A stretch of 64,000 bases of DNA from an uncultured Gammaproteobacteria bacterium (GCA_964435035.1 CAYSXR010000004.1:676-64675), one strand, 5' to 3'. Shown: positions 1 through 34,384, counted from the stretch's first letter. The notes: a model not told the origin generated them from the sequence alone. Numbers and translations: made by a program.

Positions 1-23
1 TCGTCGCCGATCGGCTTCAGCTT

Positions 24-737
24 GTGCAGCTGATCGCACGGATCATGGTCGGCTATCACCTACATGCCGAGATGATTCTAGCAGGTAAGGCCTCAGTCAG
101 CTCTCGCCCGACGTCCCGCATGGTAGCGGCCGCAGTGCAGCAACTCGCGCCCCCCACATCTGACGGCCTTCGGTGGAGACGTGACGGTTGGGTCTTCCAA
201 ATGATCTCGTGGATTTCGGTGCGTGAAGGCTCACTGACGAGAATCCTCGCGGCCCCGCACATGCGGGAAGGTCGTCACGGTTTTGACGGTCTTTTCCTTG
301 AAGATGTCAACGGCACCGTCACGTTGACTGTTTGCGAGGACAAGGCAACGGACAATTCTCGAGCGACGGTTCAGCAGCAGGTATTTCCCGAATTCGCATC
401 GCTCGAAGCCGGGGAACGCGATGCAGAGCTGCAAGCAGAACTCACCGCTCTTCTTCGACAAACATCGCGTTCTTCAGATCAAATCGCTGCGGCTATTGAT
501 GCCGTGCAATGGGAACAGCAGCGAAGATTCCGAGCGACAGTTACCGCCGAGACCGCAGTAGCGAATCGGCCGGAGGCACTCTACAAGGACTATGACACCG
601 TCGTGATTGGGAGCGTTGAGCGTCGCTCCGGCAACATATTTGTCGAGGACGCGTTGCGACCATGGATGGATAGCTTGTGCGCGGACATTACCGCTGAACT
701 ACAGCGACTACCCGTTCGACCTACAAAGACAACGTAG
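24..737 (+). CDS. Hypothetical protein, 5'-truncated by the window edge; candidate PD-(D/E)xK-like nuclease (possible HamA/DUF1837-like partner of the downstream helicase)
   Basis: High-GC ORF in frame from position 3 with no upstream stop (GTG at 24 is only the first possible start). Contains FDGLFLED...TLTVCEDK, which fits a D...(D/E)xK restriction-endonuclease-like motif. Its stop lies 3 nt before the helicase ATG, suggesting translational coupling. Confidence 0.45.
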   Translation: MQLIARIMVGYHLHAEMILAGKASVSSRPTSRMVAAAVQQLAPPTSDGLRWRRDGWVFQMISWISVREGSLTRILAAPHMREGRHGFDGLFLEDVNGTVTLTVCEDKATDNSRATVQQQVFPEFASLEAGERDAELQAELTALLRQTSRSSDQIAAAIDAVQWEQQRRFRATVTAETAVANRPEALYKDYDTVVIGSVERRSGNIFVEDALRPWMDSLCADITAELQRLPVRPTKTT

Positions 738-740
738 AGT

Positions 741-3700
741 ATGTACGACCCTATTACCCGCGCTCTCATTGCCTCAGCTCCACCCCTCAAAGGGCTTGAA
801 CGAGCGCGCTTGCCCGAGGAATTAGCTCAGGCATACGCGACACTTGTGTCCGCGCGACTTCGCCTTCAGGAAGTACCCGACGATCCCGAGTGGCCTAAGG
901 AGATTGCCCGGGTCCGCCGCTTGGCCAACACCTACGAAACTTACGCGGCGGCGCTTGCCGAGCGAGACGATCAGGAAGCCGCCGCGTTTGTCGCTGCGAC
1001 GGCTCACGGCATCGTTCAGCGTGCCGTCTCGCTCCGTGATCCATCGACTGCAGCAACGGTGCTGGCGAGCAATTTCATCTCGCCAGACATCTCGGCATGC
1101 CTTCTTTTCCTTGCGGCGGGCTATTTTGCTGACGCGCTGGAGGTCGCACGGAGATTCCAGATCCCCAAAGAGGCACGCGAAGTGGACGTGGTGGGCCTGC
1201 AACGTATGATCCAGCATCTCGTTGCGGGTCGTCTTGGTGCAGCCATCAATGCCCGCAGAGAGATGTCCACGGACCGTGCGCAGCGTGATGTTGTTGCACG
1301 GCTGTACCTCGACATTGCAGATGCGGTCGAAGTCCTATGTACTGAGATCCGAGACGGAACGACGCTCGACTCGGTCGCTCGACTGCGCTCAGCTCAGCAG
1401 CGCGCAACGCTTCCGATTCTCGTAGCGGGGCGCGTGCCTGCGACGGTGGCTACTCTAGCGGGACCGCACCATCTTGCGACGCTACTTCTCCAAGCCGCGC
1501 CTTCACTGTTGCGGCGACGTATGTCGATCATCCCAGCGCCACTCGGCACAGGCGCGTCATGGGAGAACTTCAAGGCAAATCTCTCCCATCTGCGCCCGTT
1601 TTTGTGGAGAAGTCACGAGAATGCGGTGGAGTCCGGGTTTCTGAACCCGGGAACATCGGCAGTGCTCAGCTTTCCGACCGGGTCTGGTAAGTCGACGATG
1701 GCGGAGCTCAAGGTCGCGAGCACGCTGTCAACCGACAAGCATATTCTCTACCTCGTGCCGACGCATGCCTTAGTGTCGCAGGTCACGGCAGACCTAAAGC
1801 GCGCGTTCCCCGACACGGGCGTGGCCGACTCCATAGTCTTTGAGGCAGACTACACCGAAGTCGAGGAGCAGCAGGCACAGATTGCCGTCATGACGCCGGA
1901 ACGTGCCTTGACCATCCTGAGTAGCGACCCCGCCACGTTCGACGGAGTCGGCCTCATTGTCATGGACGAGTGTCACCTGTTGCATCCGGGCGAAGAAGAT
2001 CGGCTTCGCCGCAACATCGATGCAATGTTCTGCTTGCTGTCATCGACGGCACACTGCCCGGATGCGGACGTTCTCTTGATGTCCGCAATGATGCAGAACC
2101 ATATGGAACTCGCTGCGTGGCTTGCAGATCTCACCGGCCGTCCATGTCTCGGGCTCAGCACTGATTGGAAGCCAACTCGCCAGATGCGTGGCTGCGTGGT
2201 TTTTGGCTCGGAGGAAGTCGAGGCACTTAACGCTCTGATTGCCCGTGCAAAAGCCGTCAAGACTACGAAAGGACCGCCGGCGGGCTTAGTTCGGTCCCTG
2301 ACCGCTCAGCCTCAGGCCCTATTCGGGCTCAAACAGACATGGTCCCGTGACGCGCTGGACTTCAAGCTCTTACCGTTGCTCAATCGGAAGCTGCAACTGA
2401 AGGCCAACAAGGACTGGTGGCTCACCCCAAATCGGAATGAGGTGTCAGCCGAGCTTGCCACTGAATTTGCAGACCGAGGTCTGCCTGTACTCGTCTTCGC
2501 CGAATCCCCGCGCCTCGCCGATTCTCTTGCAGATGCGATCGCCGAGAAGCGAAACGGAACCGTCGCGCTTCTTGGTGATGAGACTCGTCTCCGTGAGATT
2601 GCAGTTGATGAACTCGGGTCAGACGCTGACCTTCGGGGCCTGACCAACGGATTGGCCGCGTCGCACCACGGGTTGCTGCTGCCAACTGAACGGCGCCTCG
2701 TAGAGAGCGTCTACAAGCGCGGAGATCAGACCATCGCGCTCGTTGGAACCCCAACGCTCGCGCAAGGTGTCAATTTGCCAGCGGAGGTTGTCATTGTGTC
2801 GGGTGACGACCGCTACAACCCGGTAACGAAGAAGTCAACGCCGCTAAACGCCGAGGAACTCCTCAATGCGGTAGCACGAGCGGGGCGACCTGGCTTCGCA
2901 TCCGTTGGAATCGTCCTGGTTGTTCCTGGACGCGTGGTGAGTGTCGACTGGTCGGCAACCACCGTAGGAAAGCGGTGGCTCGACTTGCAGAAGGATGTGT
3001 TCTCAAAGCTCGATCAGTGTCTTGTCATTGATGACCCACTCGAACGAATGCTTGACCTCGTCCAGACCACGCCCAACGCCACAGATGCGCGGTACTTTCT
3101 TAATCGTCTTCCAACTGATGGTTCAACAGTAAAGCAGTTCTTGGCGCGAAGCTTCGGTGCATATCGAGCGAGTCAGGCGATGCAACGCGAGGCCTTCGAC
3201 CGGAAAGCGTTCCATGTTGCGGCGCTCCGAGAAGCTGCTAGCCCAGAGGATGAGTGGGTCGACGCGATCGCGGTGACGTCTGGTGTTGATATTGAGTTTG
3301 CGCGCTCTCTGGCAAGTCAGTTCGAGGACAATCCAGGGTATTGGGACTGCACGACGGTGCAAGAGCTATGTGGGCGGTTCTTTCAATGGCTCCGAGAAGA
3401 CTCAGTCCGAGGACATGCACTGTTCCGAGGTTCTGTCTCGAAAAGCTCTCTGGGCCCGGAAGATATGGAAGACTTGGTCGAAATGTGGATCGGTGGGTCT
3501 ACACTGCGAGAGTTGGAGAGTCGTCTAAGCGACAAAGTCGTTGATGGATGCTGGAAGGCTAGAGAGTTTGTGCTCCGTCGAGTGCCGGATATTTCCTACG
3601 GGCTTGGCGTGGTTGCTCACGCCTACCGCCTGAAGGTAGGCGAAGGGGGCGACATGCCGACCGTTCTGGCTTGTGGGGCCGAGTGTCTCAAGAGGGGGTT

Positions 3701-3863
3701 TTCGTCTCCTGAACAGCTGGCTGTCGCCTATTCTGTTTCTGAAGATCACTCCAGACGTGAGTACGCAGAGATCCTTTCGCGGCTTGAACTTGAACCCGGA
3801 GAGGATCGGGAACCCTTTTCGAAGACGCTGTCTCGTGTACGGAGTGCGCTATCCAACGACTAG
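741..3863 (+). CDS. Superfamily-2 DExH-box helicase, 1040 aa, with a roughly 300-aa N-terminal domain and a roughly 400-aa C-terminal extension; candidate defence helicase (Hachiman HamB-like)
   Basis: Walker A FPTGSGKST, motif Ia YLVPTHALVSQ, motif II VMDECH, SAM(M) motif III-like, motif VI ARAGRPG. High GC. Immediately follows a nuclease-like ORF. Confidence 0.7.
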   Translation: MYDPITRALIASAPPLKGLERARLPEELAQAYATLVSARLRLQEVPDDPEWPKEIARVRRLANTYETYAAALAERDDQEAAAFVAATAHGIVQRAVSLRDPSTAATVLASNFISPDISACLLFLAAGYFADALEVARRFQIPKEAREVDVVGLQRMIQHLVAGRLGAAINARREMSTDRAQRDVVARLYLDIADAVEVLCTEIRDGTTLDSVARLRSAQQRATLPILVAGRVPATVATLAGPHHLATLLLQAAPSLLRRRMSIIPAPLGTGASWENFKANLSHLRPFLWRSHENAVESGFLNPGTSAVLSFPTGSGKSTMAELKVASTLSTDKHILYLVPTHALVSQVTADLKRAFPDTGVADSIVFEADYTEVEEQQAQIAVMTPERALTILSSDPATFDGVGLIVMDECHLLHPGEEDRLRRNIDAMFCLLSSTAHCPDADVLLMSAMMQNHMELAAWLADLTGRPCLGLSTDWKPTRQMRGCVVFGSEEVEALNALIARAKAVKTTKGPPAGLVRSLTAQPQALFGLKQTWSRDALDFKLLPLLNRKLQLKANKDWWLTPNRNEVSAELATEFADRGLPVLVFAESPRLADSLADAIAEKRNGTVALLGDETRLREIAVDELGSDADLRGLTNGLAASHHGLLLPTERRLVESVYKRGDQTIALVGTPTLAQGVNLPAEVVIVSGDDRYNPVTKKSTPLNAEELLNAVARAGRPGFASVGIVLVVPGRVVSVDWSATTVGKRWLDLQKDVFSKLDQCLVIDDPLERMLDLVQTTPNATDARYFLNRLPTDGSTVKQFLARSFGAYRASQAMQREAFDRKAFHVAALREAASPEDEWVDAIAVTSGVDIEFARSLASQFEDNPGYWDCTTVQELCGRFFQWLREDSVRGHALFRGSVSKSSLGPEDMEDLVEMWIGGSTLRELESRLSDKVVDGCWKAREFVLRRVPDISYGLGVVAHAYRLKVGEGGDMPTVLACGAECLKRGFSSPEQLAVAYSVSEDHSRREYAEILSRLELEPGEDREPFSKTLSRVRSALSND

Positions 3864-3931
3864 AGCGCCAATCAGCTCGATCGGCCATGTTCAAGCGTCC
3901 ATGCGAAGATCCGGTGCACCGTCTCTAGTCG

Positions 3932-3960
3932 GATGACTCTCAGTTGAGAGTCATCTATTT
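3932..3960 (+). terminator. Rho-independent terminator after the helicase gene
   Basis: Perfect inverted repeat GATGACTCTCA-gt-TGAGAGTCATC followed by TATTT. Confidence 0.6.
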
Positions 3961-4098
3961 AGGTTGCTGAGCGCCGCGTGACGGCGCGCGTCGAGGTGAA
4001 CGGAATCAGGACCTCTGATACACTAATCATCATTGATCGTCCGAATCAGCCTTTCGACCCATTCAAGCGTTCGAGAACCCGTCCTGGCGACTCTACAG

Positions 4099-4132
4099 AA
4101 GCACTGCTCTACCAAGAGTGGTGCTTTTATTT
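4099..4132 (+). terminator. Hairpin plus T-tract at the high-GC/low-GC junction
   Basis: AAGCAC-N16-GTGCTT followed by TTATTTG. Marks the end of the GC-rich segment. Confidence 0.4.
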
Positions 4133-4178
4133 GCAAAGAGTGCTCCTTTTTGAAGTTGGAATTTAAGGAAAATATCCA

Positions 4179-4207
4179 CTTGACACTTCCGTCTATATTT
4201 GGTATCC
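4179..4207 (+). promoter_or_regulatory. Sigma70-like promoter for rplJL
   Basis: TTGACA, a 17-nt spacer, then TATCCT. Followed by a roughly 140-nt leader before rplJ. Confidence 0.45.
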
Positions 4208-4348
4208 TCTTATCACCATAGACAGTAGCTTCTCGAGAAATATCGAGATTAAATACGCTACCGAGGTAAACCAGTTCCGAATTAGTCGGGACAAAGGTCG
4301 AATTACCGTGTAGTCTGTGGTTCACAAAACCACATTTTTTATTTGTTT

Positions 4349-4870
4349 ATGCCAAAAACTAGAGCACAAAAAGAAGTAGCAATGCAAGCATTGGTTGATA
4401 CCCTCAAGCAGTCGAAGTCTGTTGTGTTCGCCAACTTTCAAGGTTTGAAAGTTTCTGAATCAGAAGAGCTTCGCAGACTTTGTCGCAAAGAAGGTGTTGA
4501 ATACCTTGCTGCAAAGAAGACTTTGGTTGCACGTGCACTCAAAGATGCAGGAATCGAAGGAAATCCAAAATCTTTTGAAGGCGCTGTTTCTGTTGTATTT
4601 GGGATCGAGGATGAGGTTGCTCCCGCTCAGATTCTTGCAAAATTCGCGAAAACACATGAAGCTGTAAAGCTTTTTGGTGGTATTCTCGAAGGTTCATTTA
4701 TTGATAGTACAAAAGTGACTGAACTTTCAAAACTTCCAAGTAAACAGCAGCTTCTCGGTCAATTGGTGGGCACACTTAACGCTCCAATATCTGGATTTGT
4801 TAATGTGCTTGCTGGAAATCTCCGAGGACTGGTTACCGTACTTGGTGCGATTAAAGATGCAAAAGTTTAA
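4349..4870 (+). CDS. rplJ: 50S ribosomal protein L10
   Basis: MPKTRAQKE... L10 family sequence; ATG at 4349 preferred over the TTG at 4343; followed by rplL. Confidence 0.9.
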   Translation: MPKTRAQKEVAMQALVDTLKQSKSVVFANFQGLKVSESEELRRLCRKEGVEYLAAKKTLVARALKDAGIEGNPKSFEGAVSVVFGIEDEVAPAQILAKFAKTHEAVKLFGGILEGSFIDSTKVTELSKLPSKQQLLGQLVGTLNAPISGFVNVLAGNLRGLVTVLGAIKDAKV

Positions 4871-4894
4871 TACTAGTTATTAATTAATGTATAT

Positions 4895-5299
4895 ATGTCA
4901 GAAGAAAAAACAGTTGTAGAAGTACCAGCAAAATTTCAGTCTCTCGTAAGTGAGGTTGAAAAAATGTCTGTACTTGATCTCGCTGAACTCGTAAAAGTTC
5001 TCGAGGAAAAATTTGGAGTTTCAGCAGCAGCTCCAGCAATGATGATGGCAGCTCCAGCCGCAGGCGGGGCAGCAGCTGCAGAAGAAAAGACCGACTTCAA
5101 TGTTGAACTTACTGAAGCAGGTGGAAACAAGATTGCTGTAATCAAAGTAGTAAAAGAAATTACTGGTCTTGGACTCGCTGAAGCAAAAGGACTCGTTGAT
5201 GGCGCTCCAAAGGTTATTAAAGAAAAAGTTGCAAAAGCAGATGCTGAAGAAATGAAAAAGAAAATCGAAGAAGCTGGTGGAAAAGTTACCTTAAAATAA
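4895..5299 (+). CDS. rplL: 50S ribosomal protein L7/L12
   Basis: Ala-rich hinge [22 protein letters not shown] and C-terminal domain [20 protein letters not shown]...KIEEAGGKV. Confidence 0.95.
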
Positions 5300-5316
5300 G
5301 CGCCTGTTACTTCATT

Positions 5317-5347
5317 AAAAAATCCTCTGTAAATCAGAGGATTTTTT
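5317..5347 (+). terminator. Rho-independent terminator after rplL
   Basis: AAAAATCCTCTG-taaat-CAGAGGATTTTTT. Confidence 0.8.
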
Positions 5348-5362
5348 AATTTTCTAATGTTT

Positions 5363-5457
5363 AAATTATTCTAATTATACTAATTGACCTAAGTGCTTTA
5401 AAATTTATTTTGATTTTTTTTAGAATAATTAGAGTAATTAGAACAATTAGGTTAATT
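5363..5457. repeat. Family A intergenic iteron palindrome, copy A1
   Basis: Left arm of three 9-mers (AATTATTCT, AATTATACT, AATTGACCT), a spacer, then right arm AGAATAATT, AGAGTAATT, AGAACAATT, AGGTTAATT, which are reverse-complement 9-mers. Lies between the convergent rplL and the membrane protein gene. Confidence 0.7.
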
Positions 5458-7715
5458 TATAATTTAAACTTGTATACCACTGTCCCATCCAACACATACG
5501 CTTCTTTTTCATCTGCACTAATCGTTAGTCCAGTTGGATTGGTCCATTGGTCTGCGGTAAATTGTTTTTTGAAAGTACCTTCTTTATCGAGCATAATTAT
5601 TCGTTTTCGTGAAGGCTCGAGTATATATAGATTTCCAAATTCACTATTTGTTTCGATTAGAGTAGGAGATTCAAGTATTGGATCAAGACCTGAAATTTCA
5701 AATGGCTGTTCCTCTCCTGCAGTGAATTTAATAATTTCTCCTTTTGATGTTGCTACAAAGATATCTCCATCAATTCCAAATGCTGTGCTATTTTTGAGTG
5801 CATTTTGTGTATGGGGCGCCTGTACCCATGTAGTACCATTGTCATATCCAATTTGTGTTGGATTGTGTCGATATAGAGTACCGTTTCCTGTATCCAGTGC
5901 GTAGAGACGTCCATTGTAGAGTGCAATGTCTTTCAGTACTACTGATTGATTTGGGTAGCCGATTGTTTTTGAGATAATACTATCTGAGATGTTGTCGTAT
6001 GCTACAATTGTGTTCGTTCCTGAGATAAATACCACTTGTGAATTATCTTTTGCTGTATATCCTTGTGTGAGCTGGCGTGTAGTCTCAGCATTTTTGGTTT
6101 CTACTGTTCCGGTTAGTGTGGATATGAAATATAATGAAGAATCAGTAATTCCTGTAGCGATTAATTTGTCACCGACTAGTACTAACGAATCAGGTCTTGC
6201 GTTGGTTATCGTATCTTTAATGTCAGCTATCTTTTCAGGTGTGATTGTGGTAATTTTTTGTACCCTAATCAGGAGTTTTGCAAGCTCTGATTTGATTTTA
6301 TCAGCGTGCGATTGTTTTTCTGGAGTTTCGTGTGTGAGTGAATTGAGTAGGTTTTCAGCATCACGTAGAGACTCAAGTGCTTTGGTATTTTCTCCGTAGA
6401 GAAGATAGGACTCAACTTCTTTTTGTTTTTCATCCACCTGCACCATTTCTGCTTGGTACGTTTCTTCTGCAATAATTTCTTTTTGTTTTGCTTTCATGTA
6501 CATGACGCTACCAATAAGTACTGCAATTCCTACGATTAGAGTGAGGAGTAATATTTTTCCAAACATTCCGAGACTAGTAATTCGGTCTACTATTCTTGTG
6601 ATTGATGTCTTGTATTGTTCGATCAAAATTTTTCTGCTTCCATTATAATTACTGATGAGCGACCATAGTATGGTGATGAATTTTCCGAGTGCAAATACCA
6701 CAGTCTTTAATACATAAAAGAGTGCTCGAACAATCCATACGAGCGATTTTCCAAGCATGATTAAAATGGTATTTGCTCCGTCTTCGACTACTCCCTCATC
6801 CCTTTTTCTTTTTTTATAGCGTCCTTGTTTGGTTTCTCTGATAGTCGAAGGTCGGTCGGGAGTATCTTCGGTGTTTCGTTTCATACTACCGGTGATAGAC
6901 TTGGCAAGGTGTGAAAAAACTTTTGGTGATAAGGTTTCTTCAGTTGAGCGTGTGGTGTCGATTAATTTATCCATTGATTCTTCTGAGCCAATAATTGGCC
7001 GATAGAGGTTTTTTTCTACACGTACAGGCTCAATCATCTCTGTCCCGGTGAGGACTAGTCCACCAAATGAGTATTCAGAGGAAATTGCTTCAAGTGTTTT
7101 TTGTACTTGATGAGCGGATTGTTTTGCGGGTTTTCCGATAATCATTTTGGCAATCCGATCGCATGAGAAATATTTGATGATATGTGGTGTTGAAATATAT
7201 ACTGCTTCATCAGTCGTAAAATTTCCTTCAATAACTGAAGAAAAGAAAATATGCTCCGGATATACCACTTCATCGACAATACGAGTGAATGAAGGTCCTT
7301 CAGGGGTGGAATACGCTAGAAGTGCAAGAATATCCCCTCGATATGCAAATGAAAGTTTGTTGCCCGTAATCACTCCAACTGCGATATGGATCTTTCTTTC
7401 TTCGTCTTCAAGCAGTACCTTTGCTCGGCGATTGAGTTTTTCGATAACTGATTCAAAGTGCTTTACTTCAGGATTCTCAGCATTTTTTGTTTCGCCATCA
7501 TAATCGCTATAGTATAGTGCCTCTCCATCGGTTATCAATTCTTCAATTATGCCTAATATTTTTCCTTCAGGATGATCAATTTCTGCGAGCACAAAAAAAT
7601 ATCCCTGATTTTCTCCGTCTGGTTTGCCAGGGGAAGCGATGTGGAGGAGTACGTGGGAAAGGTGACTATTTTTTCCTTCGACAAAAAATTCGTATACTTC
7701 ACTTTTTATAGGCAT
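5457..7715 (-). CDS. Hypothetical membrane protein with an N-terminal cytoplasmic domain, central TM helices and a C-terminal beta-propeller-like repeat domain
   Basis: Long ORF with hydrophobic segments ILIMLGKSLVWIVRALFYVL and LLTLIVGIAVLIGSV. C-terminal YVTN/NHL-like repeats (GNGTLY, GDIFVAT). The ORF track start is TTG at 7769; ATG at 7715 (MPIKSEVYEF) is preferred because a promoter lies between the two. Confidence 0.55.
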   Translation of the reverse strand: MPIKSEVYEFFVEGKNSHLSHVLLHIASPGKPDGENQGYFFVLAEIDHPEGKILGIIEELITDGEALYYSDYDGETKNAENPEVKHFESVIEKLNRRAKVLLEDEERKIHIAVGVITGNKLSFAYRGDILALLAYSTPEGPSFTRIVDEVVYPEHIFFSSVIEGNFTTDEAVYISTPHIIKYFSCDRIAKMIIGKPAKQSAHQVQKTLEAISSEYSFGGLVLTGTEMIEPVRVEKNLYRPIIGSEESMDKLIDTTRSTEETLSPKVFSHLAKSITGSMKRNTEDTPDRPSTIRETKQGRYKKRKRDEGVVEDGANTILIMLGKSLVWIVRALFYVLKTVVFALGKFITILWSLISNYNGSRKILIEQYKTSITRIVDRITSLGMFGKILLLTLIVGIAVLIGSVMYMKAKQKEIIAEETYQAEMVQVDEKQKEVESYLLYGENTKALESLRDAENLLNSLTHETPEKQSHADKIKSELAKLLIRVQKITTITPEKIADIKDTITNARPDSLVLVGDKLIATGITDSSLYFISTLTGTVETKNAETTRQLTQGYTAKDNSQVVFISGTNTIVAYDNISDSIISKTIGYPNQSVVLKDIALYNGRLYALDTGNGTLYRHNPTQIGYDNGTTWVQAPHTQNALKNSTAFGIDGDIFVATSKGEIIKFTAGEEQPFEISGLDPILESPTLIETNSEFGNLYILEPSRKRIIMLDKEGTFKKQFTADQWTNPTGLTISADEKEAYVLDGTVVYKFKL

Positions 7716-7720
7716 AGCTT

Positions 7721-7749
7721 TTGACACGATAATACCTACATAGTATACT
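7721..7749 (+). promoter_or_regulatory. Bidirectional promoter region with a shared palindromic -10
   Basis: + strand: TTGACA, 17 nt, TATACT. - strand: TTGCGA, 16 nt, TATACT. Both use the palindrome AGTATACT at 7742-7749. Confidence 0.5.
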
Positions 7750-7814
7750 ACAGACTGTCTATTTCGCAATAACGTATCCCTTTATTTTGCTTATATACAG
7801 ACGTTTTCAATTGT

Positions 7815-8414
7815 ATGCTCGAACACTTATTTGGCTCAAAGACAAGGGTCAAAACTCTTAAATTATTATACCGAAGGCCTGATCGACCTTTTTTTGTTCG
7901 TGAACTTTCTCGTGAAATTGGCGTACAGATCAATGCGGTACGTAGAGAATTAGAGCTTTTACTTAGGCTTGGGATTATTTTGGAGAAAACAGATACTAAG
8001 CCTGCTGATGTGGAGAAGGCAGGGGTTACGCTCCGTAAATATTATCAACTGAATCCTGAATCATTATTGTATGCAGAATTGCAGGCCCTTCTTATTAAAG
8101 AAACAGTTATTGAACAAAAACAGTTTATTGATGACCTTAGTACAAAAATTGGGGATATTAAATTACTTATTTTGACTGGTGCCTTTACTCATGATATCAA
8201 GGTGGAGACGGATTTACTTATTATTGGTACTGTAAAGCTTCGAGCTCTTACAAAACTTATTGAACATTATCAGCATGAGATGGGATTTGATATCCGCTAT
8301 ACGATTATGACTGAAGATGAATTTATTGATCGCAGATATGTGATGGATAAATTTTTATTTTCAATTTTTGAAGCAGAACATGTCAAAGTTATTGATCAGA
8401 TAACACAGAATTAG
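7815..8414 (+). CDS. Winged-helix DNA-binding protein (putative transcriptional regulator)
   Basis: N-terminal KTRVKTLKLL...FVRELSREIGVQINAVRRELELL is an ArsR/wHTH-like recognition helix. C-terminal domain unknown. Confidence 0.5.
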   Translation: MLEHLFGSKTRVKTLKLLYRRPDRPFFVRELSREIGVQINAVRRELELLLRLGIILEKTDTKPADVEKAGVTLRKYYQLNPESLLYAELQALLIKETVIEQKQFIDDLSTKIGDIKLLILTGAFTHDIKVETDLLIIGTVKLRALTKLIEHYQHEMGFDIRYTIMTEDEFIDRRYVMDKFLFSIFEAEHVKVIDQITQN

Positions 8415-8445
8415 GATCGCTAGGGTTGATAAACTATAGAACTTC

Positions 8446-8554
8446 AAAATTATTCTAATTGTACTAATTGACCTAATTATTCTAATAAGAATTAGAAAGT
8501 GGCAGGGTTTTTAATCTGGGATTTTTAGAATAATTAGGGTAATTAGAATAATTG
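8446..8554. repeat. Family A iteron palindrome, copy A2
   Basis: Four left 9-mers (AATTATTCT, AATTGTACT, AATTGACCT, AATTATTCT), a 40-nt spacer, then right arm AGAATAATT, AGGGTAATT, AGAATAATT, ending 12 nt before the ATG at 8566. Confidence 0.7.
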
Positions 8555-8565
8555 TATTTTTGATT

Positions 8566-8955
8566 ATGTACTTGTTTATCGATCCTTCGAAACAAGACTC
8601 AATTCGATTAGTACTTTTTTTACATGACACTTCTCGTGAACATGTATTTGATGTACGAAATAGAGAACTTCTCTCAGTTATTGTTGAAATGCTTGAGCGG
8701 GAACATGTGCCACTTGCACATATTCGAGGAATTGTTGTTCTAGTGGGGGAAGGTAGGTTTTCAAGTACTCGGATTGCTAGTGTAGTTGGAAATACATTAT
8801 CGTATGCACTACATATTCCGGTTGTTGCAACCACTCGAGGTAATGAGCCGACTGGCGCGACTATTGATACCTTCTTTACTGCGTCAGGTATATTATATTA
8901 TATTACACCGACATATAGTGGTGAACCACATATTGGTGTGCGCGGACCTTCCTAG
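8566..8955 (+). CDS. TsaB/YeaZ-like protein (truncated Kae1-partner domain)
   Basis: GEGRFSSTRIASVVGNTLSYALHIPVV resembles TsaB GPGSFTGVRIGV..A.GLA..L..P. Only about 130 aa. Confidence 0.4.
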   Translation: MYLFIDPSKQDSIRLVLFLHDTSREHVFDVRNRELLSVIVEMLEREHVPLAHIRGIVVLVGEGRFSSTRIASVVGNTLSYALHIPVVATTRGNEPTGATIDTFFTASGILYYITPTYSGEPHIGVRGPS

Positions 8956-8961
8956 AAATTT

Positions 8962-10446
8962 ATGCTTTCTCCTTACCAACGTTACCGTTTATATGAAATG
9001 CTTCCAGGCATTTCTATCTGGGGTACTCTCATTCTCGCGGTTGTTTTTTCGTTTCTATATCCGCTTGCAATGATTTATTTTATCATTATTTTTGATATCT
9101 ATTGGGTGCTCAAAGTATTTAATTTTTCTTTTTATTTAATCGTATCATGGATTAGATATCGTAAAGTACAGCGGATCGACTGGAAAGACGCACTCCAACA
9201 TGATATTCCTGATGCAACACGCTTACGTCATGTAGTTTTTTTGACTGTCTTTAATGAAACGTGGGATGTGGTTGAGGGTGCGGTCGCTAGTGTGGCTGCT
9301 TCTGTGTACAATCCATCGTTGTTTACTCTGGTTATTGCAGGAGAAGAGCGTCAAGCAGAGCATTGTAAAGAACTTTTTCAAAAAATAGAAGCTCGTTTTC
9401 TTGATGTATTTGACCATATTGCTTTTACTCTTCATCCAAGCAGCCTCCCTGATGAAATTCCAGGAAAAGGTTCAAATTTGCATTATGCTGAAGGTGAAAT
9501 GAAGAAATATATTGATGCACATGGCTGGAAATATGAAGAGGTGATTATCACCGTATTTGATATTGATACCGTGTGTCATTCTAATTATTTTGCGTATTTG
9601 GCATATACCTATGCTACTCATCCAAACCCAACAAAGAGCTCATATCAGCCGATTGCACTCTATAACAATAACATGTGGGAGTCGCCATCAGTGTTGCGTA
9701 TTATGGCGTTTGGTACCACATTCTGGATGATGATGTCTCTCGCTCGTCAAGATTCGCTTGTCACCTTTTCTTCACATTCAATGAGCTTCAAAGCATTAGT
9801 TGATGCAGGATTTCATGATAAACGTATCGTAAGTGAGGATTCGCGAATTTTTTATCAATGTTTGCTTGCTTACAACGGTAAGTATGAGGTAACTCCATTG
9901 TATATTCCCGTATCAATGGATACAGTCCGGGATACTTCCTGGTGGCAGAGTATTCGAAATCTCTATCGTCAGCAGCGCCGTTGGGCATGGGGAGTAGAAC
10001 ATGTGCCATTTTTATTGTGGGAGTTTAGAAAAAAAGGAAAATTGATACCATGGTATACTAAATTTAAATGGCTTTTTATTGAATGGGAAGGTAAATGGTC
10101 ATGGTGTCTTGCAGCTCTCCTTATCACCATTCTTGGAAGATTTCCACTGTGGGTAGCTAGTCCTAGTATTAGACAGAGTGCACTGTATTTCAATGCGCCA
10201 CATCTGCTTGAAATTCTTATGACTGCTGCTATGAGTGGGCTTATTCTTTCTGCAATGCTTAGTTTACCCCTCCTTCCCCCTCGACCACAATCGCATCCAC
10301 GATATCGATATGTAATCATGGTATTGCAGTGGATTTTATTACCGGTTTCAATGCTTTTTGTTGCAGCAGCTCCAGGGATCGATGCAGTGACACATTTGAT
10401 GCGTGGTAAATATTTAGGATTTAATATTTCTCAAAAAAAACGCTAG
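8962..10446 (+). CDS. Membrane glycosyltransferase, GT2 family (processive, cellulose/chitin-synthase-like)
   Basis: Multiple TM helices, DxD-like region FDIDTV, and the Q(Q/R)xRW motif YRQQRRWAWG. Confidence 0.7.
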   Translation: MLSPYQRYRLYEMLPGISIWGTLILAVVFSFLYPLAMIYFIIIFDIYWVLKVFNFSFYLIVSWIRYRKVQRIDWKDALQHDIPDATRLRHVVFLTVFNETWDVVEGAVASVAASVYNPSLFTLVIAGEERQAEHCKELFQKIEARFLDVFDHIAFTLHPSSLPDEIPGKGSNLHYAEGEMKKYIDAHGWKYEEVIITVFDIDTVCHSNYFAYLAYTYATHPNPTKSSYQPIALYNNNMWESPSVLRIMAFGTTFWMMMSLARQDSLVTFSSHSMSFKALVDAGFHDKRIVSEDSRIFYQCLLAYNGKYEVTPLYIPVSMDTVRDTSWWQSIRNLYRQQRRWAWGVEHVPFLLWEFRKKGKLIPWYTKFKWLFIEWEGKWSWCLAALLITILGRFPLWVASPSIRQSALYFNAPHLLEILMTAAMSGLILSAMLSLPLLPPRPQSHPRYRYVIMVLQWILLPVSMLFVAAAPGIDAVTHLMRGKYLGFNISQKKR

Positions 10447-10450
10447 GTAT

Positions 10451-11935
10451 ATGTTTATACAAGCTACATCTCGAGAAAAGAAAAAAAAGAAATTACCCTA
10501 TATTCTATTAAGTATTTTTTTGTTATTAGTATTATGTAGTCTCGCAGTATATTACGTCATTCGACATGTTGGAATTGAAGGATTTCTTTCATCTTCTTTT
10601 GTGCAGCAGCAAATTAGTAAACATGTTGGTGGGGATGAGGGTGATATTTTTGAGCTTTTGCCGATCGCGCTTGGTTTCGATGAACCAAAAACATACCTAG
10701 TGTTATTTTTAAATAATACAGAGATGCGTCCGGGCGGGGGATTTATTGGTGTGTATGGTACTGTTCGTGTTACGGGGGGGCATGTTGAGGTTTTGAAAGT
10801 TGAAGGAACTGAAATATTAGATAATCAATCTTCACATGTTAATGTGCCTGTTCCTCCAAGTCCTTTGTCTCAGTATCTGAAAGTTTCAGGGTGGTATTTC
10901 AGAGACAGTAACTGGTCTCCTGATTTTGCTGAGAGCTCAAAACAGGGGTTGGCACTGTATACTCGAGAGAATGGAGTTGCGTCGGGAGACATTGATGCAG
11001 TTATTGGAGTGACTGCTACGGTGCTTGAAGAACTTATGAAAAAAACTGGACCGATTACGATTAATGGAATTACGTTTACTCCAGAAAATGTAGTAGCTGA
11101 GCTTGAGCATGAGGTTGAATATAAATTTATTGATCGAGGAATTTCTCGAGGAGATCGTAAAGATATTATTGAGCCTTTTATGCTTGCTATGATTGATAAG
11201 TTGAAAAGTGATGTATTGCGTCATCCTTTTGAATATCGTGCACTCGCTGAAAAATTATTACAAGAAAAGCATGTTGTCGCATACGCACTTGATTCAAACA
11301 TTCAAAATACGTTACATGAACATTCAGCAGATGGAAGTATTGCAGATACGACTGGCGATTATCTCATGTGGGTGGATGCCAATCTTGGTGCATTAAAAAC
11401 TGATCATGCGATTACACGTACACTTTCTTATACTATACAACCAGAAGTGTCTCCAACAGGGGATCGGTATTATGAAGCGACTGCGACGATGAAGTATATA
11501 CACTCGCAGCCTTTTGACTGGAGAACGTCGCGATACCGTACGTACGCACGAGTGTTTGTGCCTGAAGGCTCTGAACTGATTTCTTTTCGTGTAAGTAAAG
11601 GGCAACAGGTCCCCCCATATCTAGCTCAGAGTGGAGAAGAGCTTGGAAAAAAATGGTTTGGAACTTTTGTTACTATAGAACCGCTTGGAGTTGAAACACT
11701 CACCTTCACCTATCGTTTGCCCAACTCCATCGCTCAGCAGATTGATCAAAAAATGTATACGTTACATGTACAAAAACAAATCGGCCTTGTGGGCGCTTCA
11801 TTGACGCTCGACCTTGATTTTGATACAACTATCCAAGCAGCAGAACCTCCTGAAATGCAATCTGAGTGGGGGGATGGTGTGTATCGGTTCGAAACCCGGT
11901 TTGATCGAGATTGGGAGTTTGAAGTACGGATGTAG
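10451..11935 (+). CDS. Membrane-anchored DUF4012-like protein, commonly adjacent to glycosyltransferases
   Basis: N-terminal TM; LVLFLNNTEMRPGGGFIGVYG motif. Confidence 0.45.
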   Translation: MFIQATSREKKKKKLPYILLSIFLLLVLCSLAVYYVIRHVGIEGFLSSSFVQQQISKHVGGDEGDIFELLPIALGFDEPKTYLVLFLNNTEMRPGGGFIGVYGTVRVTGGHVEVLKVEGTEILDNQSSHVNVPVPPSPLSQYLKVSGWYFRDSNWSPDFAESSKQGLALYTRENGVASGDIDAVIGVTATVLEELMKKTGPITINGITFTPENVVAELEHEVEYKFIDRGISRGDRKDIIEPFMLAMIDKLKSDVLRHPFEYRALAEKLLQEKHVVAYALDSNIQNTLHEHSADGSIADTTGDYLMWVDANLGALKTDHAITRTLSYTIQPEVSPTGDRYYEATATMKYIHSQPFDWRTSRYRTYARVFVPEGSELISFRVSKGQQVPPYLAQSGEELGKKWFGTFVTIEPLGVETLTFTYRLPNSIAQQIDQKMYTLHVQKQIGLVGASLTLDLDFDTTIQAAEPPEMQSEWGDGVYRFETRFDRDWEFEVRM

Positions 11936-11997
11936 TTATAATTTTAAAAGAGATAAGATTTATTGTTTTCTAGTAAAAGAGTAAAAAGTTGGTTTTT

Positions 11998-12030
11998 ACC
12001 AGATAACTAGCAAACCAGTAAACTAGATAA
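11998..12030 (-). repeat. Family E 8-bp periodic CTRGTT repeat, copy E1 in reverse orientation
   Basis: Reverse complement reads ATCTAGTT-TACTGGTT-TGCTAGTT-ATCTGGT. Lies immediately upstream of mreB. Confidence 0.5.
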
Positions 12031-19917: not shown

Positions 19918-22900
19918 ATGGTGAAATTTAAGAAAAATAAGCAGAAGTTAGTGAAATCACAATCACGTAATTCTAACAGCAAATGGGATTTTGCTGCTTA
20001 TTGGGTTTGGCATGAATTGTTATTATCATATGGTAGACTTCGTAAAACTACCAAAACTCGTACAGCAAAAAAAGAACTTAATGCTCTTGGTAAACAAATC
20101 ATGCGTCATTATGTAAAAAACTTTGTTTATTTTCCTGTTTGGCTTTTTAAATTTCTTACGCCTTCATATCTTAAAGGTCCAGTAAATGTATGGACCAATT
20201 TACGTACCATTCTCCGAAGTTCTGAATTTCGTCCTCTTCGACTCGCGGTGGTTTCACAGGCAGTCTTTTGTTTTGTTTTTATTAGGTTGGGAATGCTTAT
20301 TTTTTATAACCTTTCAACTCCAGCTGATGCTGCTACGTTTGGATGGATACAGACTACGTGGACTGGGGGAGTCTCGACTACTGTTGCAGCTACGCATTCG
20401 AGTGATCGAACTGGCTGGACGACATATGCGAGTTCTACTCAAGTGAACACTACTGTTTCATCTGGAAATATTACTATTGCAACTTCATCATACATAACGA
20501 CAGATGATAGCACACTTAGTACTGATGGTCTTGCAAGTGGTGGTGGATTTGCAAATGGTGTCACCTCTAGCGTGGTAGTGAACGGCGGAGATGTTACTCT
20601 AGGTATTGCATCTGCTGGTGGAGAAATTAATCAGTGGGATGCTACTCCATATAATCTTCCTGCTACTATTAGTGGTACCGAAGATGGTAATGGAGTTATG
20701 GTGACTGATGGCGTTGATGCTTTTTATATCCTTCGTGGGGGTGGAACGACTGGGTTTTATAAATTTATTCCTTCTGATAAAACAACGAGCACTCTTACCT
20801 CTGTGCCTACCTCTATACCTCCCAATGGGGGTGGGGGAACGGTTGCGTTGTCTGGTGATTATATTTATCTGTATTCTGGAGGTAATAGTAATGTTAAATT
20901 TTACGCATATTCGATTTTGGGGAATTCATGGACTACTCTTACTAATCCGCCTAGTTCACCTTATGGTGACGGTATTGGTAGTACCATGGCTGTTGATGCT
21001 TCAGGAAATATTTATTTTGCAGCAGGTGGAGCAACAACAAATTTTTTAAAGTATACCGTAACTTCAAGTGCTCCGTATGGGGCATGGAGTGTGTTGTCTA
21101 GTATTGGAAATTCTGTGGGAAGAGGCTCTCGAGCAATATATGATAGTGAGAATAATGATATCCTTATCCTTACAGGTAATAATGGTCATACCATAAGTAA
21201 GTACGATATTGATTTAGGTACGATGACTAATTATGCTGGTGCTCCTAATGACCCTGGATTTACGTCGGGTGCTTCGATGGTAAAAAATGATGACAACGAT
21301 ATTGTATATGCAATTACCGGTCAAAACTATGCATGGCTTGAGAGATTGAATTTGAATAGTGGCACATGGGCATCAAGACAAACTTCTTCAACACCTGCTG
21401 CAGGAAATACAGTGGGGTATATGATACATAAACCTGGAGAAAACAGGATTTATACCACATTTGGAGGAACTAGTTTTTACTATTTACGACCACAACAAGG
21501 GGATTGGCAGTTCACTACCACGACTAAGCCAATTCCTGGATCAATCGGTGCGGGTGCTACCATGATTCGTCACAATAATGATGAAATTTATGTATTGGCT
21601 GGGGGAGGGAGTAGTGCTATTTATCGTTTTGCTATTAATGCGGGTACTCAATATACAGCTACAGGTACACTTACTTCTGCAACAATTGATCTTAAATATG
21701 CAACTTCTACTCGGATTTCATGGTCCTCGAGTGCGCATGGTCAGACTGGGTCAAATCCAGTAAAGTTTCAAGTTGCCGCAAATACGGATAATGCTACCTG
21801 GAGCTATGTAGGTCCTGATGGAACTTCAGGAACGTACTTTACTAGTTCTAATACTGCATTGCCTGGATCATTGAATGGAAAAAGATATTATCGATATCGA
21901 GCCTATTTAACTACTGCAAATACTTCATTTACTCCTACACTTAGTAGTGTTACTTTTACGTATCATAGTTATTTGACTTCTGGTTCACTCGCGTCAAATC
22001 CTTTTAATGCTGAAGATGACACTAATGTGCTCGCTGCGGTTTCGTGGGCGGGAAGTGTTCCGGCGGGTACCGTGATTAAATTCCAAGTGCGTACTAGTCC
22101 TGATAATGCAGTCTTCACTTCATGGATGGGTCCGGATGGAACTTCTGGTACGTATTTTACTGACAGTAGTGGTGCGCAAACGATGCCTGCTCTGTTGACC
22201 GATGGGGAAGATGATCGTTGGATTCAGTATAAAGTATTTTTTGAATCTGATGGAACAGGAACTCCGATTCTTGAACAAAGTACACTTACGTATGTAGTGA
22301 ATGCACCTCCGGAGATTACTATTACGAATACGGTTTCTACTACTTCCAGTGGTGTTGTAGTGGTGAATTATGACGTGCGTGATATTGATAGTGCAACGGG
22401 TGCTACGCCTGGTGTGGTTGCTGTTGCGCTTCAGTATTGTACGGCGAGTTGTTCAAGTGTGGGGAATGAGGTGTGGGCTACAGCAGTAACTTCAAGTTTG
22501 TCTGGTACGTTTGGTTCGAGCGTTGCAGTGGATACTGTTTCGACTACTCAATATACAAGTTATTCATTGACTTGGACTCCCACTAGTTCTTATAATAACC
22601 AGTATAATGGATCGAATTTTAAAATCCGTCTTCGTGCGAATGATTCTGAGGCGGCAAATAATATCGGGGTTGATGAGTCCAATACTTTTGTATTGGATAC
22701 TACTGATCCTTTACCTTCAATTATTATTGATGGGAGAAGTATTGCGACCAGTACACTTTCGATTAGCGTTACTGATGATACAATGGCAGGATTAGAAATG
22801 AAATTATCAAACGACAGTGACCTATCTTCGGATGGATTAAATGGAAGTTCGGGTACGTGGATTCCGTATACAACAACCTCGACGTGGAATTTGGGTACTG

Positions 22901-25900
22901 GAGGAACAACGGTCTATTACCAGGTTAGGGATGCATTTGGAAATATCTCTGCAAATGGTATTATCTCATCTGCAGAGACTCCTGAAATTCCTGGAAATTT
23001 ATTTTTTAAAGATATTTCGAACTCTGATACTTTGGAATGGCGAGAATTTATTGCATGGCAAATTATTGATGATCCGACTCCTGGATTTGCACAATACGCA
23101 ATTTATCGTTCAAGCGATGGTATTAATTATACTGAAATTGCTACTCAAGTATCACGTATTATTAATTATTATCTTGATACTGATATTGATACAGGAACGG
23201 TTTATTATTATAAAGTTACTTCAGAAGATAGCGATGGTAATATTTCGGCATTTTCGACTATTGTATCTGATAATCCGAATGGAACGGGAGGAACTGATGT
23301 GTCTGCGCCGACTATTTCCAATGTTACGACGAGTTCGATTGGTTCAAATTCAATTACGATTACCTGGGAGACTGATGAAGTTTCTGATTCGTATATTGAT
23401 TATACGACTGAAGAGGGAAGTGACTTTAGTAATGTGGATACGGTAGGTCTGACGACGATGCGAAATAATGCTGCAGGACTCGGTATTCATATAGTTTCTC
23501 TCACGAATCTTGCACCAAACACGACATATTATTTCCGTGTACGATCTCTCGATCCTGATGGTAATGAGGGAATTGGCACGCAAGCTCCTAATGGATACGT
23601 ATACACGACGCTCACTGGACCGATTATTTCAGATGTTTCAACTGCTGAAATTCGAAATACTCAGGCAACAGTTACATGGAGTACTGATCAGGATAGTGAT
23701 TCGTATGTAGTTTTTTCTACCTCTTCAAGTTTTACTGCGTCTTCGACTGTAGGTTCACCTCTCACTGTGTCATCGCATGAGGTAGTTCTGCCTTCGCTTC
23801 TTCCGGGGACTACGTATTATTATTATGTTCAATCTGGGCAAGTAACTGATAAGAATACTATCGAAGGGCAGCATGAATATTATACGTTTGAAACCACTGC
23901 GGATATTACGGCTCCAGTAATTACGTTTGATTCTGGGGGAGACGTGGTTGTGTCTGATACTTCATTGGTAATTACTTTTAGCACCAACGAGACTGCAACT
24001 TCTACGATTAATTATGGTACGAGTCTTTCATATGGGTCTGTGATCGCTAATAATAATCTTAATTCTGACCACCGTTACGTATTTACTGGACTTCTTCCAG
24101 GTACTGCATACTATCTGAGTATGCGTGTTGCGGATGTTGATGGAAATATATCAAGCGCCCTTCAATTTAGTGTTACTACTACTGATAGTGCAGATTATAC
24201 TCCGCCTATCATTACGAACGTAACTTCGAGTGTGGTGACTGATGATGAAGCACTTATACTCTGGTCAACTGATGAGGGCGCTACTGGAAAAGTGTATTAT
24301 GGTACGACGAGCACGGTATACACTGAATCAAGTGATTTAGTTTCAACTTACAATCGTGAACATTTTATGACTCTCAGTGGGTTGACTACTTCAACAGAGT
24401 ATTTTTATGTAGTTGTATCAGCTGATGTAAGTGGAAATAGTAGTACTTCAACTGAGTATTCATTTACCACTCTCGAAGAATTATCTGAAGAAAGCGAAGT
24501 GCGATTGCGTGAAGAAACTGCGTACGCACAAGGGCTCGCCGATGGTACTCCACCACCAGATTTTGTGGCACCAATCATTTCGAATGTTACTTCGACGGTG
24601 GTGACTGATGATGAGGCTCTTATTATCTGGTCGACTGATGAGGGTACAACGGGACGGGTTCATTATGGTACCACTCCTTCAACGTATACTGAATCAAGTG
24701 ATTTAGTTGCTACATTTAATAGTGCGCATGCAATTACCCTTCATAATCTTACTACTTCTACGCAATATTATTTTGTTGTAGTGTCTGCTGATTCTAGTGC
24801 AAATACTTCTACTTCTGGCGAATATACGTTTACCACACTTGAAACACTCTCAGAAGAAAGTGAAGTGTTGCTTCGTGAAGAGGCTGCTCGAGCAGAGGGT
24901 GTAGTACAAGGGTCTGCAACAGTACCATCAAGTGGTGGGGGAGGAAGTTCTGTTGATCGAACACCTCCTATTATTTCTGATGTGTTGGTGAACAATATCG
25001 CCTCTGATTCTGCTACGATCAAGTGGAATACGAATGAAAATGCTAATACATTGGTAGAATTTGGAAAGACCATTGAATATGGTCGAGGCTCACTCGATCT
25101 TGAAAATGTACAAGTACATACGATTGATTTGGTTGAATTACTTCCTCTCACTACTTATTTTTATCGAATAAGCTCAATTGATACTACAGGTAATCGAAGT
25201 AGCCCAGTAACCGGATCGTTTACCACTGTTTCACTCGCTGAAGAAATTGCATCAAGTACCGAAAATATTATTGAAGATATTGCAGCAGACGAAAAAAATA
25301 CTGATGCTGCAGAGGAATTGTTTCTCTCTACTATCGAAAAAGCTGGACAAATTATCAAGAGTCTCGCTGGTCGTGTGAGTGTTGGTGTACTTGAGACATC
25401 ATTACTTGCTCAGGCACAGATTATCGAACAATTGTCTGACATTTTGCCATTACCTATTATCGGTGGACAGCCTGTAGTTGATGCAGGATCGAATTATGCT
25501 ACAGTTTCGTGGAGTACTGATAAAAATGCAAATTCATTGGTTGAGTTTGCGCCTGAAGGAGAGTTTTTGTCTGATAAGACCTATGATCAGACGGTAGGAG
25601 AGCCTACGGCTTCCCGAACTGGGCATGTGGTTGAAGTGAAAGGATTGCTTCCTGATACGGTATATCATTATCGTGTGGTTTCTCGTACACAAACGGGATC
25701 TGAAACAAAGTCTCAAGATTTTGTATTTAGAACGAAATCTCAAACTAACGAAATTACGAATTACAATGTAGTTGTTCTCTCTCCTGAAGAAGTTTCTTTT
25801 TCTTGGAATACCACGGTACCTACCGATTCTGCAGTTGTGTACACACCTTATCGAAATGGGGTACCTCAGATTGAGGCACGGCAAGTAGTACGACAAGCTG

Positions 25901-31280: not shown

Positions 31281-31353
31281 GCCGTCTTAGCTCAGCTGGT
31301 AGAGCAACGGTTTTGTAAACCGTAGGTCCGGGGTTCGAACCCCCGAGACGGCT
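31281..31353 (+). tRNA. tRNA-Thr (anticodon UGU)
   Basis: Hand-folded cloverleaf: acceptor GCCGTCT/AGACGGC, anticodon loop TTTGTAA, T-loop TTCGAAC. No encoded CCA. Flanked by 6 extra complementary nt on each side. Confidence 0.8.
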
Positions 31354-31381
31354 CGCTGATTATAAAGTTAGGAGTAAAAAT

Positions 31382-31466
31382 GGGTCGATTCCCGAGCGGT
31401 CAAAGGGGGCAGACTGTAAATCTGCTGGCTCAGCCTTCGTAGGTTCGAATCCTACTCGGCCCACCA
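31382..31466 (+). tRNA. tRNA-Tyr (anticodon GUA), long variable arm, CCA encoded
   Basis: Acceptor GGGTCGA/TCGGCCC with a G-U pair, anticodon loop CTGTAAA, T-loop TTCGAAT, 3' ACCA. Confidence 0.8.
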
Positions 31467-34224: not shown

Positions 34225-34298
34225 GCGCGCCTAGCTCAGTTGGTTAGAGCATCTCGTTTACACCGAGAGGGTCGGGGGTTCGAATCCCTCGGCGCGCA
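34225..34298 (+). tRNA. tRNA-Val (anticodon UAC)
   Basis: Acceptor GCGCGCC/GGCGCGC, anticodon loop TTTACAC, T-loop TTCGAAT. No encoded CCA. Confidence 0.8.
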
Positions 34299-34384
34299 CT
34301 GAGAAAATGAACAATTAGCAATACACAATTAACAGCACAGTATTTTGTTAATTGCTCTTTGATAATTGTTCATTTTTCATTCAT

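Follow-up and report, generated by a model that had tools for sequence, protein, structure and literature searches.

A probable sequence-divergent Hachiman-type nuclease-helicase cassette upstream of rplJ-rplL in the assembly of an uncultured gammaproteobacterium

We analysed a stretch of 64,000 nucleotides (nt) from an uncultured Gammaproteobacteria bacterium (GCA_964435035.1 CAYSXR010000004.1:676-64675; the whole stretch is hereafter called the window), at the left end of which lies a two-gene cassette, consisting of an open reading frame for a predicted nuclease (ORF1) followed by a gene for a superfamily 2 (SF2) helicase of 1040 amino acids (aa). Sequence profiles, structural models and the genomic context of relatives together make it likely that this cassette is a two-gene Hachiman-type (HamAB-like) nuclease-helicase defence module that belongs to a sequence-divergent clade. 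Hachiman is one of the more common anti-phage systems built on a helicase. Of the known systems, its minimal form resembles the cassette most closely, with AbpAB in second place. Minimal Hachiman, in which a DUF1837-containing HamA is paired with HamB, is represented by Escherichia coli ECOR31 and DEC14B and has been termed 'type I-A' (PMC11914072) or 'III-A' (PMC13064477).

On the plus strand, frame 3 has no stop between base 3 and the TAG at 735-737 (ORF1), and three bases (AGT, 738-740) separate this stop from the helicase ATG at 741, from which 1040 codons lead to a TAG at 3861-3863. A first-pass annotation, made from the sequence alone, had described the two genes as coupled across a 3-nt gap, with a 1040-aa ORF ending at 3863, and this arrangement is indeed present. 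The GTG at 24 that it took as the start of ORF1 is internal, because the frame is open to base 3 and a metagenome contig shows a longer gene. This contig, L001 (Logan, SRR12762287, 9126 base pairs (bp)), matches window positions 1-8476 at 8476/8476 bases with an offset of 650. ORF1 is truncated at the left edge of the window; its start lies 90 nt further left and the full protein (P0001) has 275 aa, NCBI's own call being 283 aa (P0424). The 559 nt upstream of ORF1 in L001 (1-559, window -649 to -91) have a G+C content (GC) of 66% and contain no convincing ORF, one sigma70-like site (L001 516-544) and a tandem 24-nt repeat (L001 135-182). ORF1 and the helicase share a reading frame, and read-through under genetic code 25 was dismissed since the stop is TAG, not TGA. 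The cassette has the following features:

1-737, plus strand: ORF1, predicted HamA-like PD-(D/E)xK nuclease gene; the 3' 244 codons and the stop, with the first 31 codons left of the window
180-212, plus strand: signature RDGWVFQMISW (residues 91-101); no block in the ORF1 family is more conserved
285-344, plus strand: predicted catalytic core D126-x16-E143-D144-K145, a D...ExK motif of metal-dependent nucleases, invariant in the alignment and placed by hhalign in register with HamA D...ExK
741-3863, plus strand: HamB-like, Ski2/Hel308-type SF2 helicase, 1040 aa, DECH box (Pfam, PADLOC, PDB, AlphaFold2/Foldseek)
741-1601, plus strand: helical N-terminal domain of the helicase, residues 1-287, where the nuclease presumably docks
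1602-2930, plus strand: RecA1/RecA2 motor core, residues 288-730; 28% identity to E. coli-type HamB over 288-726, motifs invariant
2931-3863, plus strand: mostly helical C-terminal region, residues 731-1040, from secondary structure and predicted local distance difference test (pLDDT); domain names putative
3931-3956, plus strand: hairpin, possible cassette terminator, 68 nt past the helicase stop
1-4120, no strand: high-GC (58%) foreign block with the cassette; GC falls to the host level at about 4100-4150

The pairing of ORF1 with the helicase is not a matter of chance. A helicase homologue lies directly downstream, on the same strand, at 42 of the 42 loci with an ORF1 homologue, of which contig look-ups supplied 7 and a set with one genome per species the other 35. 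At 38 of these loci the spacing from the ORF1 stop to the helicase start was resolved: the genes overlap by 8 nt at 21, the gap ranges from -11 to +12 nt at 16 of the other 17, and the remaining locus is a fusion. All 14 records in PLSDB with a near-full-length helicase match also carry ORF1, and a fifteenth has a partial ORF1 match only. The two proteins co-evolve and their genes are inherited as a unit across phyla, their pairwise identities being correlated at r = 0.96 over 28 non-redundant loci (Mantel, 0/2000 permutations). No third gene is conserved; phage integrase, the commonest Pfam family among the neighbours, accounts for 5 of 116 neighbour proteins from 17 loci. The fused locus, in Chryseobacterium ginsengisoli (L042 7923-11786, NZ_BAABHX010000001.1), has an in-frame ORF of 1287 aa that is without the last nuclease helix and about 11 N-terminal helicase residues, and it is a natural 'Rosetta-stone' fusion or else a copy in decay. 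A parallel is found in a HamA-annotated gene of 1409 aa on plasmid pn3 of Nostoc sp. UHCC 0926 (L053 646-2031), which suggests a HamA-HamB fusion in classical Hachiman.

The helicase gene has also been inactivated repeatedly by insertion sequences (IS). In the two contigs with the closest relatives of ORF1, IS66-family elements (TnpB and DDE transposase) break the helicase gene after around 130 codons (L005 2416-5298 and L006 1170-4052), and the same IS66 break occurs in the Skermanella plasmid NZ_CP067422.1.

ORF1 is predicted to be a PD-(D/E)xK DNA nuclease with a HamA-like fold and active site and an intact motif. A word-indexed database search retrieved 40 relatives, and a HMMER profile search reached 509 representatives of 50%-identity clusters at E <= 1e-3, 377 of which reach 1e-10. 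Residues D126, E143, D144 and K145 (window 285-287 and 336-344) are invariant in 29 aligned homologues, as are R91, D92, G93, F96, Q97, I99, S100 and W101. The first-pass annotation had recognized the D...EDK motif, although with a spacing of D-x17-EDK; the actual spacing is D-x16-EDK, and a D-x16-ExK arrangement is typical of PD-(D/E)xK nucleases. It had also proposed a restriction-endonuclease fold, in line with the AlphaFold model of ORF1 (pLDDT 94.4, predicted template modelling (pTM) score 0.90), whose only strong structural matches are HamA and AbpA. In a Foldseek search of the PDB, AbpA (8zue_A) and HamA (8vx9_A) rank first with a probability of 0.99-1.0, and they are the only matches below E 1e-3. 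By this Foldseek result, the likeness of the modelled ORF1 to HamA extends well beyond the shared nuclease core. A comparison of deep alignments with hhalign (160 ORF1 family members against 14 HamA, nine of them from diverse plasmid loci) was collinear over 227 columns (24-264 against 19-256) and paired D126 with the Asp of HamA and the two ExK motifs with each other. In HamA, E138/K140 and E150/K152 are essential for defence (PMC12278908, PMC11914072). ORF1 is thus most likely a very distant HamA homologue that falls outside the DUF1837 sequence family as now modelled. The sole match of the ORF1 profile to PDB sequences, a beta-xylosidase (E 0.56), was discarded as spurious.

Full SF2 motifs had been claimed for the helicase, and we located motif I (PTGSGKST, 1674-1697), motif II (DECH, 1965-1976), motif III (SAM, 2082-2090) and motif VI (ARAGRPG, about 2874-2894), the motif residues being invariant in a 40-sequence alignment. 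Pfam returned DEAD (1.3e-20), ResIII and a weak Helicase_C. The best PADLOC profile was HamB1 (1.2e-37), and 18 other HamB profiles also match. Sequence matches in the PDB are Ski2-like helicases (Slh1, Brr2, Hel308 and Mtr4), with E. coli HamB (8vx9_B, 2.3e-23, residues 287-726) as the best bacterial one. By BLAST, the helicase shares 28% identity with an E. coli-type HamB from a Klebsiella plasmid, in the motor core (288-726) only. NCBIfam models of the Hel308 type gave 1e-24 to 7e-34, that is, 83-117 bits against cut-offs of 887-1216; as these scores lie far under the cut-offs, the helicase is not a Hel308 orthologue, nor does it belong to a housekeeping family. Weaker PADLOC and NCBIfam matches to Shango SngC, Cas3, DpdF and PbeA (E 1e-13 to 1e-5) were set aside as generic similarity of the helicase core.

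The predicted structure of the helicase resembles HamB over its whole length. The AlphaFold model, built with 40 homologues, has a pLDDT of 87 and a pTM of 0.88, and its top three Foldseek matches are HamB chains, with TM-scores (TMq) of 0.67-0.72 over about 1200 columns. Hel308, Hjm and Pol-theta reach a TMq of 0.45-0.50 over 800-900 columns (E 1e-17 to 1e-20). The model therefore fits HamB around 0.25 TM units better than Hel308 or Pol-theta, a gap of about the size of the N-terminal helical domain. In HamB this domain binds HamA, and it is missing from other Ski2-like helicases (PMC12278908). From these global scores, rather than from a residue-level alignment, we infer that the N-terminal domain of the helicase is equivalent to that of HamB. 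The C-terminal region probably comprises the winged-helix and ratchet domains of Ski2-like helicases plus a HamB-type tail. The first-pass annotation had called attention to unusual extensions of 300 aa at the N-terminus and 400 aa at the C-terminus. The former is close to what we find (around 287 aa) and the latter too long (around 310 aa), and neither is unusual: because the full-length model superposes on HamB, both probably belong to normal HamB architecture.

The ORF1-helicase family has an accessory, mobile, defence-island distribution. Members of the ORF1 family occur in Alpha-, Beta-, Gamma- and Deltaproteobacteria, Bacteroidota, Planctomycetota, Armatimonadota, Leptospira and Ignavibacteria, and of 15 plasmid records that match ORF1, 11 are conjugative or mobilizable plasmids or megaplasmids. 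The closest full relative (L007, 50% identity, 64% GC) adjoins two integrases, a relaxase and a DUF87 ATPase. Other relatives stand beside McrBC and a retron-type reverse transcriptase (Pseudomonas), an AAA_15/DUF3696 ATPase and a type I restriction-modification system (Chryseobacterium), or Pnkp/Hen1, DUF4238 and RlaP (an Armatimonadota metagenome-assembled genome). A scan of 116 ORFs within 5.5 kilobases (kb) at 17 further loci, which is qualitative and has no matched background control, yielded strong PADLOC matches to a short prokaryotic Argonaute with SIR2-APAZ (at two loci), type I and III restriction subunits, Olokun OloA/OloB, MADS mad3, AriA, Old and PDC-S15, and also revealed TraG-type coupling proteins and conjugative-transposon TraM. 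A few relatives' loci have housekeeping neighbours (RNA polymerase, DNA polymerase III alpha). Relatives are, in sum, carried by plasmids and integrative elements and have known defence genes as neighbours.

In the window, the cassette lies on a compositionally foreign block, as had been noted before: GC is 58.1% over 1-4100 and 39.0% over 4150-64000, and GC at third codon positions (GC3) is 58-62% in the two cassette genes compared with 22-28% in rplJ, rplL and dnaK. The block reaches at least 650 nt further left in L001 (66% GC). On the right, the drop to a GC of around 38% takes place at about 4100-4150, immediately ahead of the rplJ promoter and the L10 leader. Directly past the block are a sigma70-like promoter (TTGACA-17-TATCCT, 4180-4208) and an L10-leader-like element (4198-4350, 37 bits, the Rfam gathering score being 44), followed by rplJ and rplL, so the control region of these genes looks intact. 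The hairpin at 3931-3956 has an 11-bp stem, a 4-nt loop and a minimum free energy of -20.2 kcal/mol (z -2.5). It had been described as a strong terminator, and the hairpin is there, but its T tract (ATTTAGGTTG) is poor; a role as cassette terminator is plausible, not of the textbook type, and read-through from the cassette into the rplJ-rplL control region could occur.

The composition points to a putative horizontal acquisition of the cassette from a high-GC donor, by which the module would have reached the low-GC host. No tRNA genes were found in 1-12000 in a search for an integration site, no convincing direct or inverted repeats flank the cassette, and, in a search for an empty site, metagenome contigs contained no exact match to a 34-mer taken from the junction's host side. 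The closest L10 relatives (66-69% identity) are uninformative on the empty site because their upstream genes are unrelated. Independently of what the cassette does, its linkage to the low-GC genome could be an assembly artefact in which a high-GC fragment was joined next to rplJ. The compositional step is extreme and falls in an intergenic stretch around 250 nt past the helicase stop, no flanking repeats or integrase are visible at the cassette, the closest homologues are embedded in DNA of 63-64% GC, and the only independent contigs end around 560 nt upstream of ORF1. On the other hand, the source contig contains the same junction (for the longest helicase contig the protein index gives 78.5 kb), and so do three Logan contigs of 5-10 kb, of which the one that was read, L001, is identical over 8476 bases; both cassette genes are also intact, with no frameshifts. 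Recent transfer is moreover plausible because the family is mobile, being found on plasmids and integrative elements, and this counts against an artefact, which we regard as rather improbable. The three short Logan contigs seem to end left of ORF1, which suggests a repeat or a coverage break there. Look-ups with the helicase and L12, made to extend the left flank, gave only the Logan contigs of 5-10 kb, and P0424 is absent from the contig index.

A number of results weigh against assigning the cassette to Hachiman. P0001 has no Pfam match at E <= 1 and no PADLOC or NCBIfam match, the NCBIfam HamA models included. DUF1837 similarity had been proposed as a check on ORF1, and the outcome was negative: none of the 29 ORF1 family members matches PF08878 (DUF1837) even at E <= 1, and the PADLOC HamA profile is touched by just one of them, at 0.0059. 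TM-scores of the ORF1 model to AbpA and HamA are only 0.47-0.49. Against a shallow HamA alignment (78% identity or more), hhalign of the ORF1 family returned a probability of 0.3%, which is not significant, and the deep comparison described above is still weak (P 0.0012, probability 19.5%), hence supportive without being proof. As for the helicase, the PADLOC candidate PDC-M23B fits as well as HamB1 (1.8e-37), the scores of both (127 bits) are modest for a 1040-aa protein, and BLAST against E. coli-type HamB found no similarity outside the motor core, residues 1-287 included. No ORF1 copy was found in 50,697 phage records, and only ribosomal-protein genes, no defence genes, are visible beside the cassette in the window.

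Several of these results would also be expected if the cassette were a separate, unnamed nuclease-helicase defence system that has only its generic design in common with Hachiman, perhaps with another trigger or control, and that stands to Hachiman as the PADLOC candidate PDC-M23 does. ORF1 fails every HamA/DUF1837 sequence model, its family has an invariant RDGWxFQxISW signature of its own that is missing from the HamA consensus, and RefSeq calls its members 'hypothetical protein' while naming true HamA genes as HamA. The helicase scores alike against PDC-M23B and HamB1, and the length of the PDC-M23B profiles (PDLC04530-04532), 1060, is close to the size of the helicase family. However, at only 127 bits the helicase is not a member of the PDC-M23B family itself, and neither ORF1 nor any of its 29 relatives matches the PDC-M23 A-subunit profiles in PADLOC. 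The helicase model, furthermore, fits HamB from end to end, apparently also in the N-terminal domain, which is missing from other Ski2-like helicases, and gene order, gene sizes and coupling are as in Hachiman. We therefore judge a separate system to be distinctly unlikely. Less likely still, and in our view hardly tenable, is a housekeeping or mobile-element repair pair, in which a Hel308/Lhr-like helicase and an accessory nuclease would act on stalled forks or transfer intermediates: the helicase core is like that of the DNA-repair helicases Hel308, Hjm and Pol-theta, some relatives lie beside TraG, a type IV secretion system coupling protein or a relaxase and a few beside the polymerase genes mentioned above, whereas the Hel308-type NCBIfam scores stay far below their cut-offs, patchy spread across phyla and IS disruption fit accessory rather than core repair genes, bona fide defence systems recur among the neighbours, and both proteins have immune proteins as their nearest relatives in structure.

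A Hachiman-type module accordingly remains the reading that we favour. The first-pass annotation had suggested a Hachiman-like defence module or an uncharacterised variant of it, which our results support; what it had named as speaking against the suggestion, an ORF1 with neither nuclease fold nor DUF1837 similarity next to a helicase firmly within a housekeeping family outside defence islands, did not arise. As ORF1 fails the DUF1837 sequence test, 'variant' is the right half of that either/or.

By analogy with HamAB and AbpAB, the nuclease would dock on the helical N-terminal domain of the helicase and would be inactive while the complex surveys intact DNA. If the helicase meets aberrant DNA (3' single-stranded ends, for instance, or damage arising from phage replication) and loads on it, ATP-driven remodelling may activate or release the nuclease, which would degrade DNA without sequence specificity and so abort the infection. 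In E. coli, HamB restrains HamA on intact DNA, 3' single-stranded or damaged DNA that enters the helicase activates the nuclease together with ATP hydrolysis, and mutation of ExK or of the helicase ATPase abolishes defence (PMC12278908, PMC11914072). We are less confident that every step of the E. coli HamAB mechanism carries over than we are of the Hachiman-type assignment.

The cassette shares with minimal Hachiman a two-gene operon in which the nuclease comes first and the helicase start overlaps or nearly touches the nuclease stop, a Ski2-like helicase of around 1040-1170 aa with a predicted HamB-like full-length fold (TMq up to 0.72), and carriage on plasmids and in defence islands. The ORF1 model has the HamA fold, that is, a PD-(D/E)xK core with HamA-specific helical additions, and ORF1 keeps the D...E-x-K motif of single-domain HamA. 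Since ORF1 is single-domain with a conserved active site, the cassette would be the functional counterpart of the minimal form ('type I-A', PMC11914072). ORF1 differs in lying outside Pfam DUF1837 and all PADLOC and NCBIfam HamA models (0/29), the domain by which HamA is defined in the literature being DUF1837 (PMC13064477), in having about 10% structure-based identity to HamA and in carrying an RDGWxFQxISW signature of its own. The helicase, for its part, is around 130 aa shorter than E. coli HamB and shares 28% identity with HamB, confined to the motor core. AbpAB of E. coli K-12 (PDB 8zue) is less similar, as AbpA has 531 aa, an extra Cap4 nuclease domain and a DUF1837 domain without catalytic residues, whereas ORF1 is a single domain with an invariant D...ExK. 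Hel308/Hjm and Pol-theta have the same motor core and winged-helix/ratchet organization but are without the N-terminal helical domain of 290 aa and without a nuclease partner (TMq 0.45-0.50); unlike housekeeping Hel308, the helicase described here is always paired with a nuclease gene and its spread is patchy and mobile.

It is possible, though we advance it tentatively, that the ORF1 family as a whole (around 500 clusters at 50% identity, from six phyla or more) is an unrecognised Hachiman type with an effector beyond all current HamA/DUF1837 models, that RDGWxFQxISW marks another mode of docking or release, and that the present copy is a recent transfer from a high-GC donor to a site directly upstream of rplJ-rplL. 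To our knowledge, every published Hachiman census defines the system by DUF1837. If the effector does lie beyond the HamA/DUF1837 models, present pipelines under-count Hachiman and miss this clade. The HamA profiles that we used do miss it, and DefenseFinder or the newest PADLOC may already capture it; a text search of the literature returned nothing relevant on Hachiman-like variants or PDC-M23. Recognising the clade would extend the known range of Hachiman and supply profiles for annotation, and the clade would serve as a natural experiment to tell which elements of HamA its control by HamB requires. In the present genome, either DNA of foreign origin has recently been acquired or, should the junction prove false, the assembly has a problem that deserves a flag. 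No new principle of immunity is indicated; a known system is extended and its annotation improved.

Several other features of the window were recorded. After rplL, a 770-aa ORF (5457-7769, minus strand) and a 199-aa ORF (7815-8414, plus strand), neither with a Pfam match, stand in place of the usual rpoB-rpoC, and the closest L10 relative (L054, 66% identity) is likewise without rplK-rplA upstream. Two ORFs of 494 aa each (8962-10446 and 10451-11935, plus strand), the first with a GT2-type glycosyltransferase domain, are possibly a tandem duplication. A 2168-aa ORF (19918-26424, plus strand) with four matches to the purple-acid-phosphatase N-terminal domain as well as Fn3 and PhoD_N probably encodes a giant surface or secreted protein. 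Five tRNA genes are located at 31281-31463, 34225-34457 and 38539-38609. Between 4150 and 64000, 28 of the 29 ORFs with 250 aa or more lie on the plus strand and cumulative GC skew rises almost monotonically, which fits a single replichore with a strong gene-strand bias.

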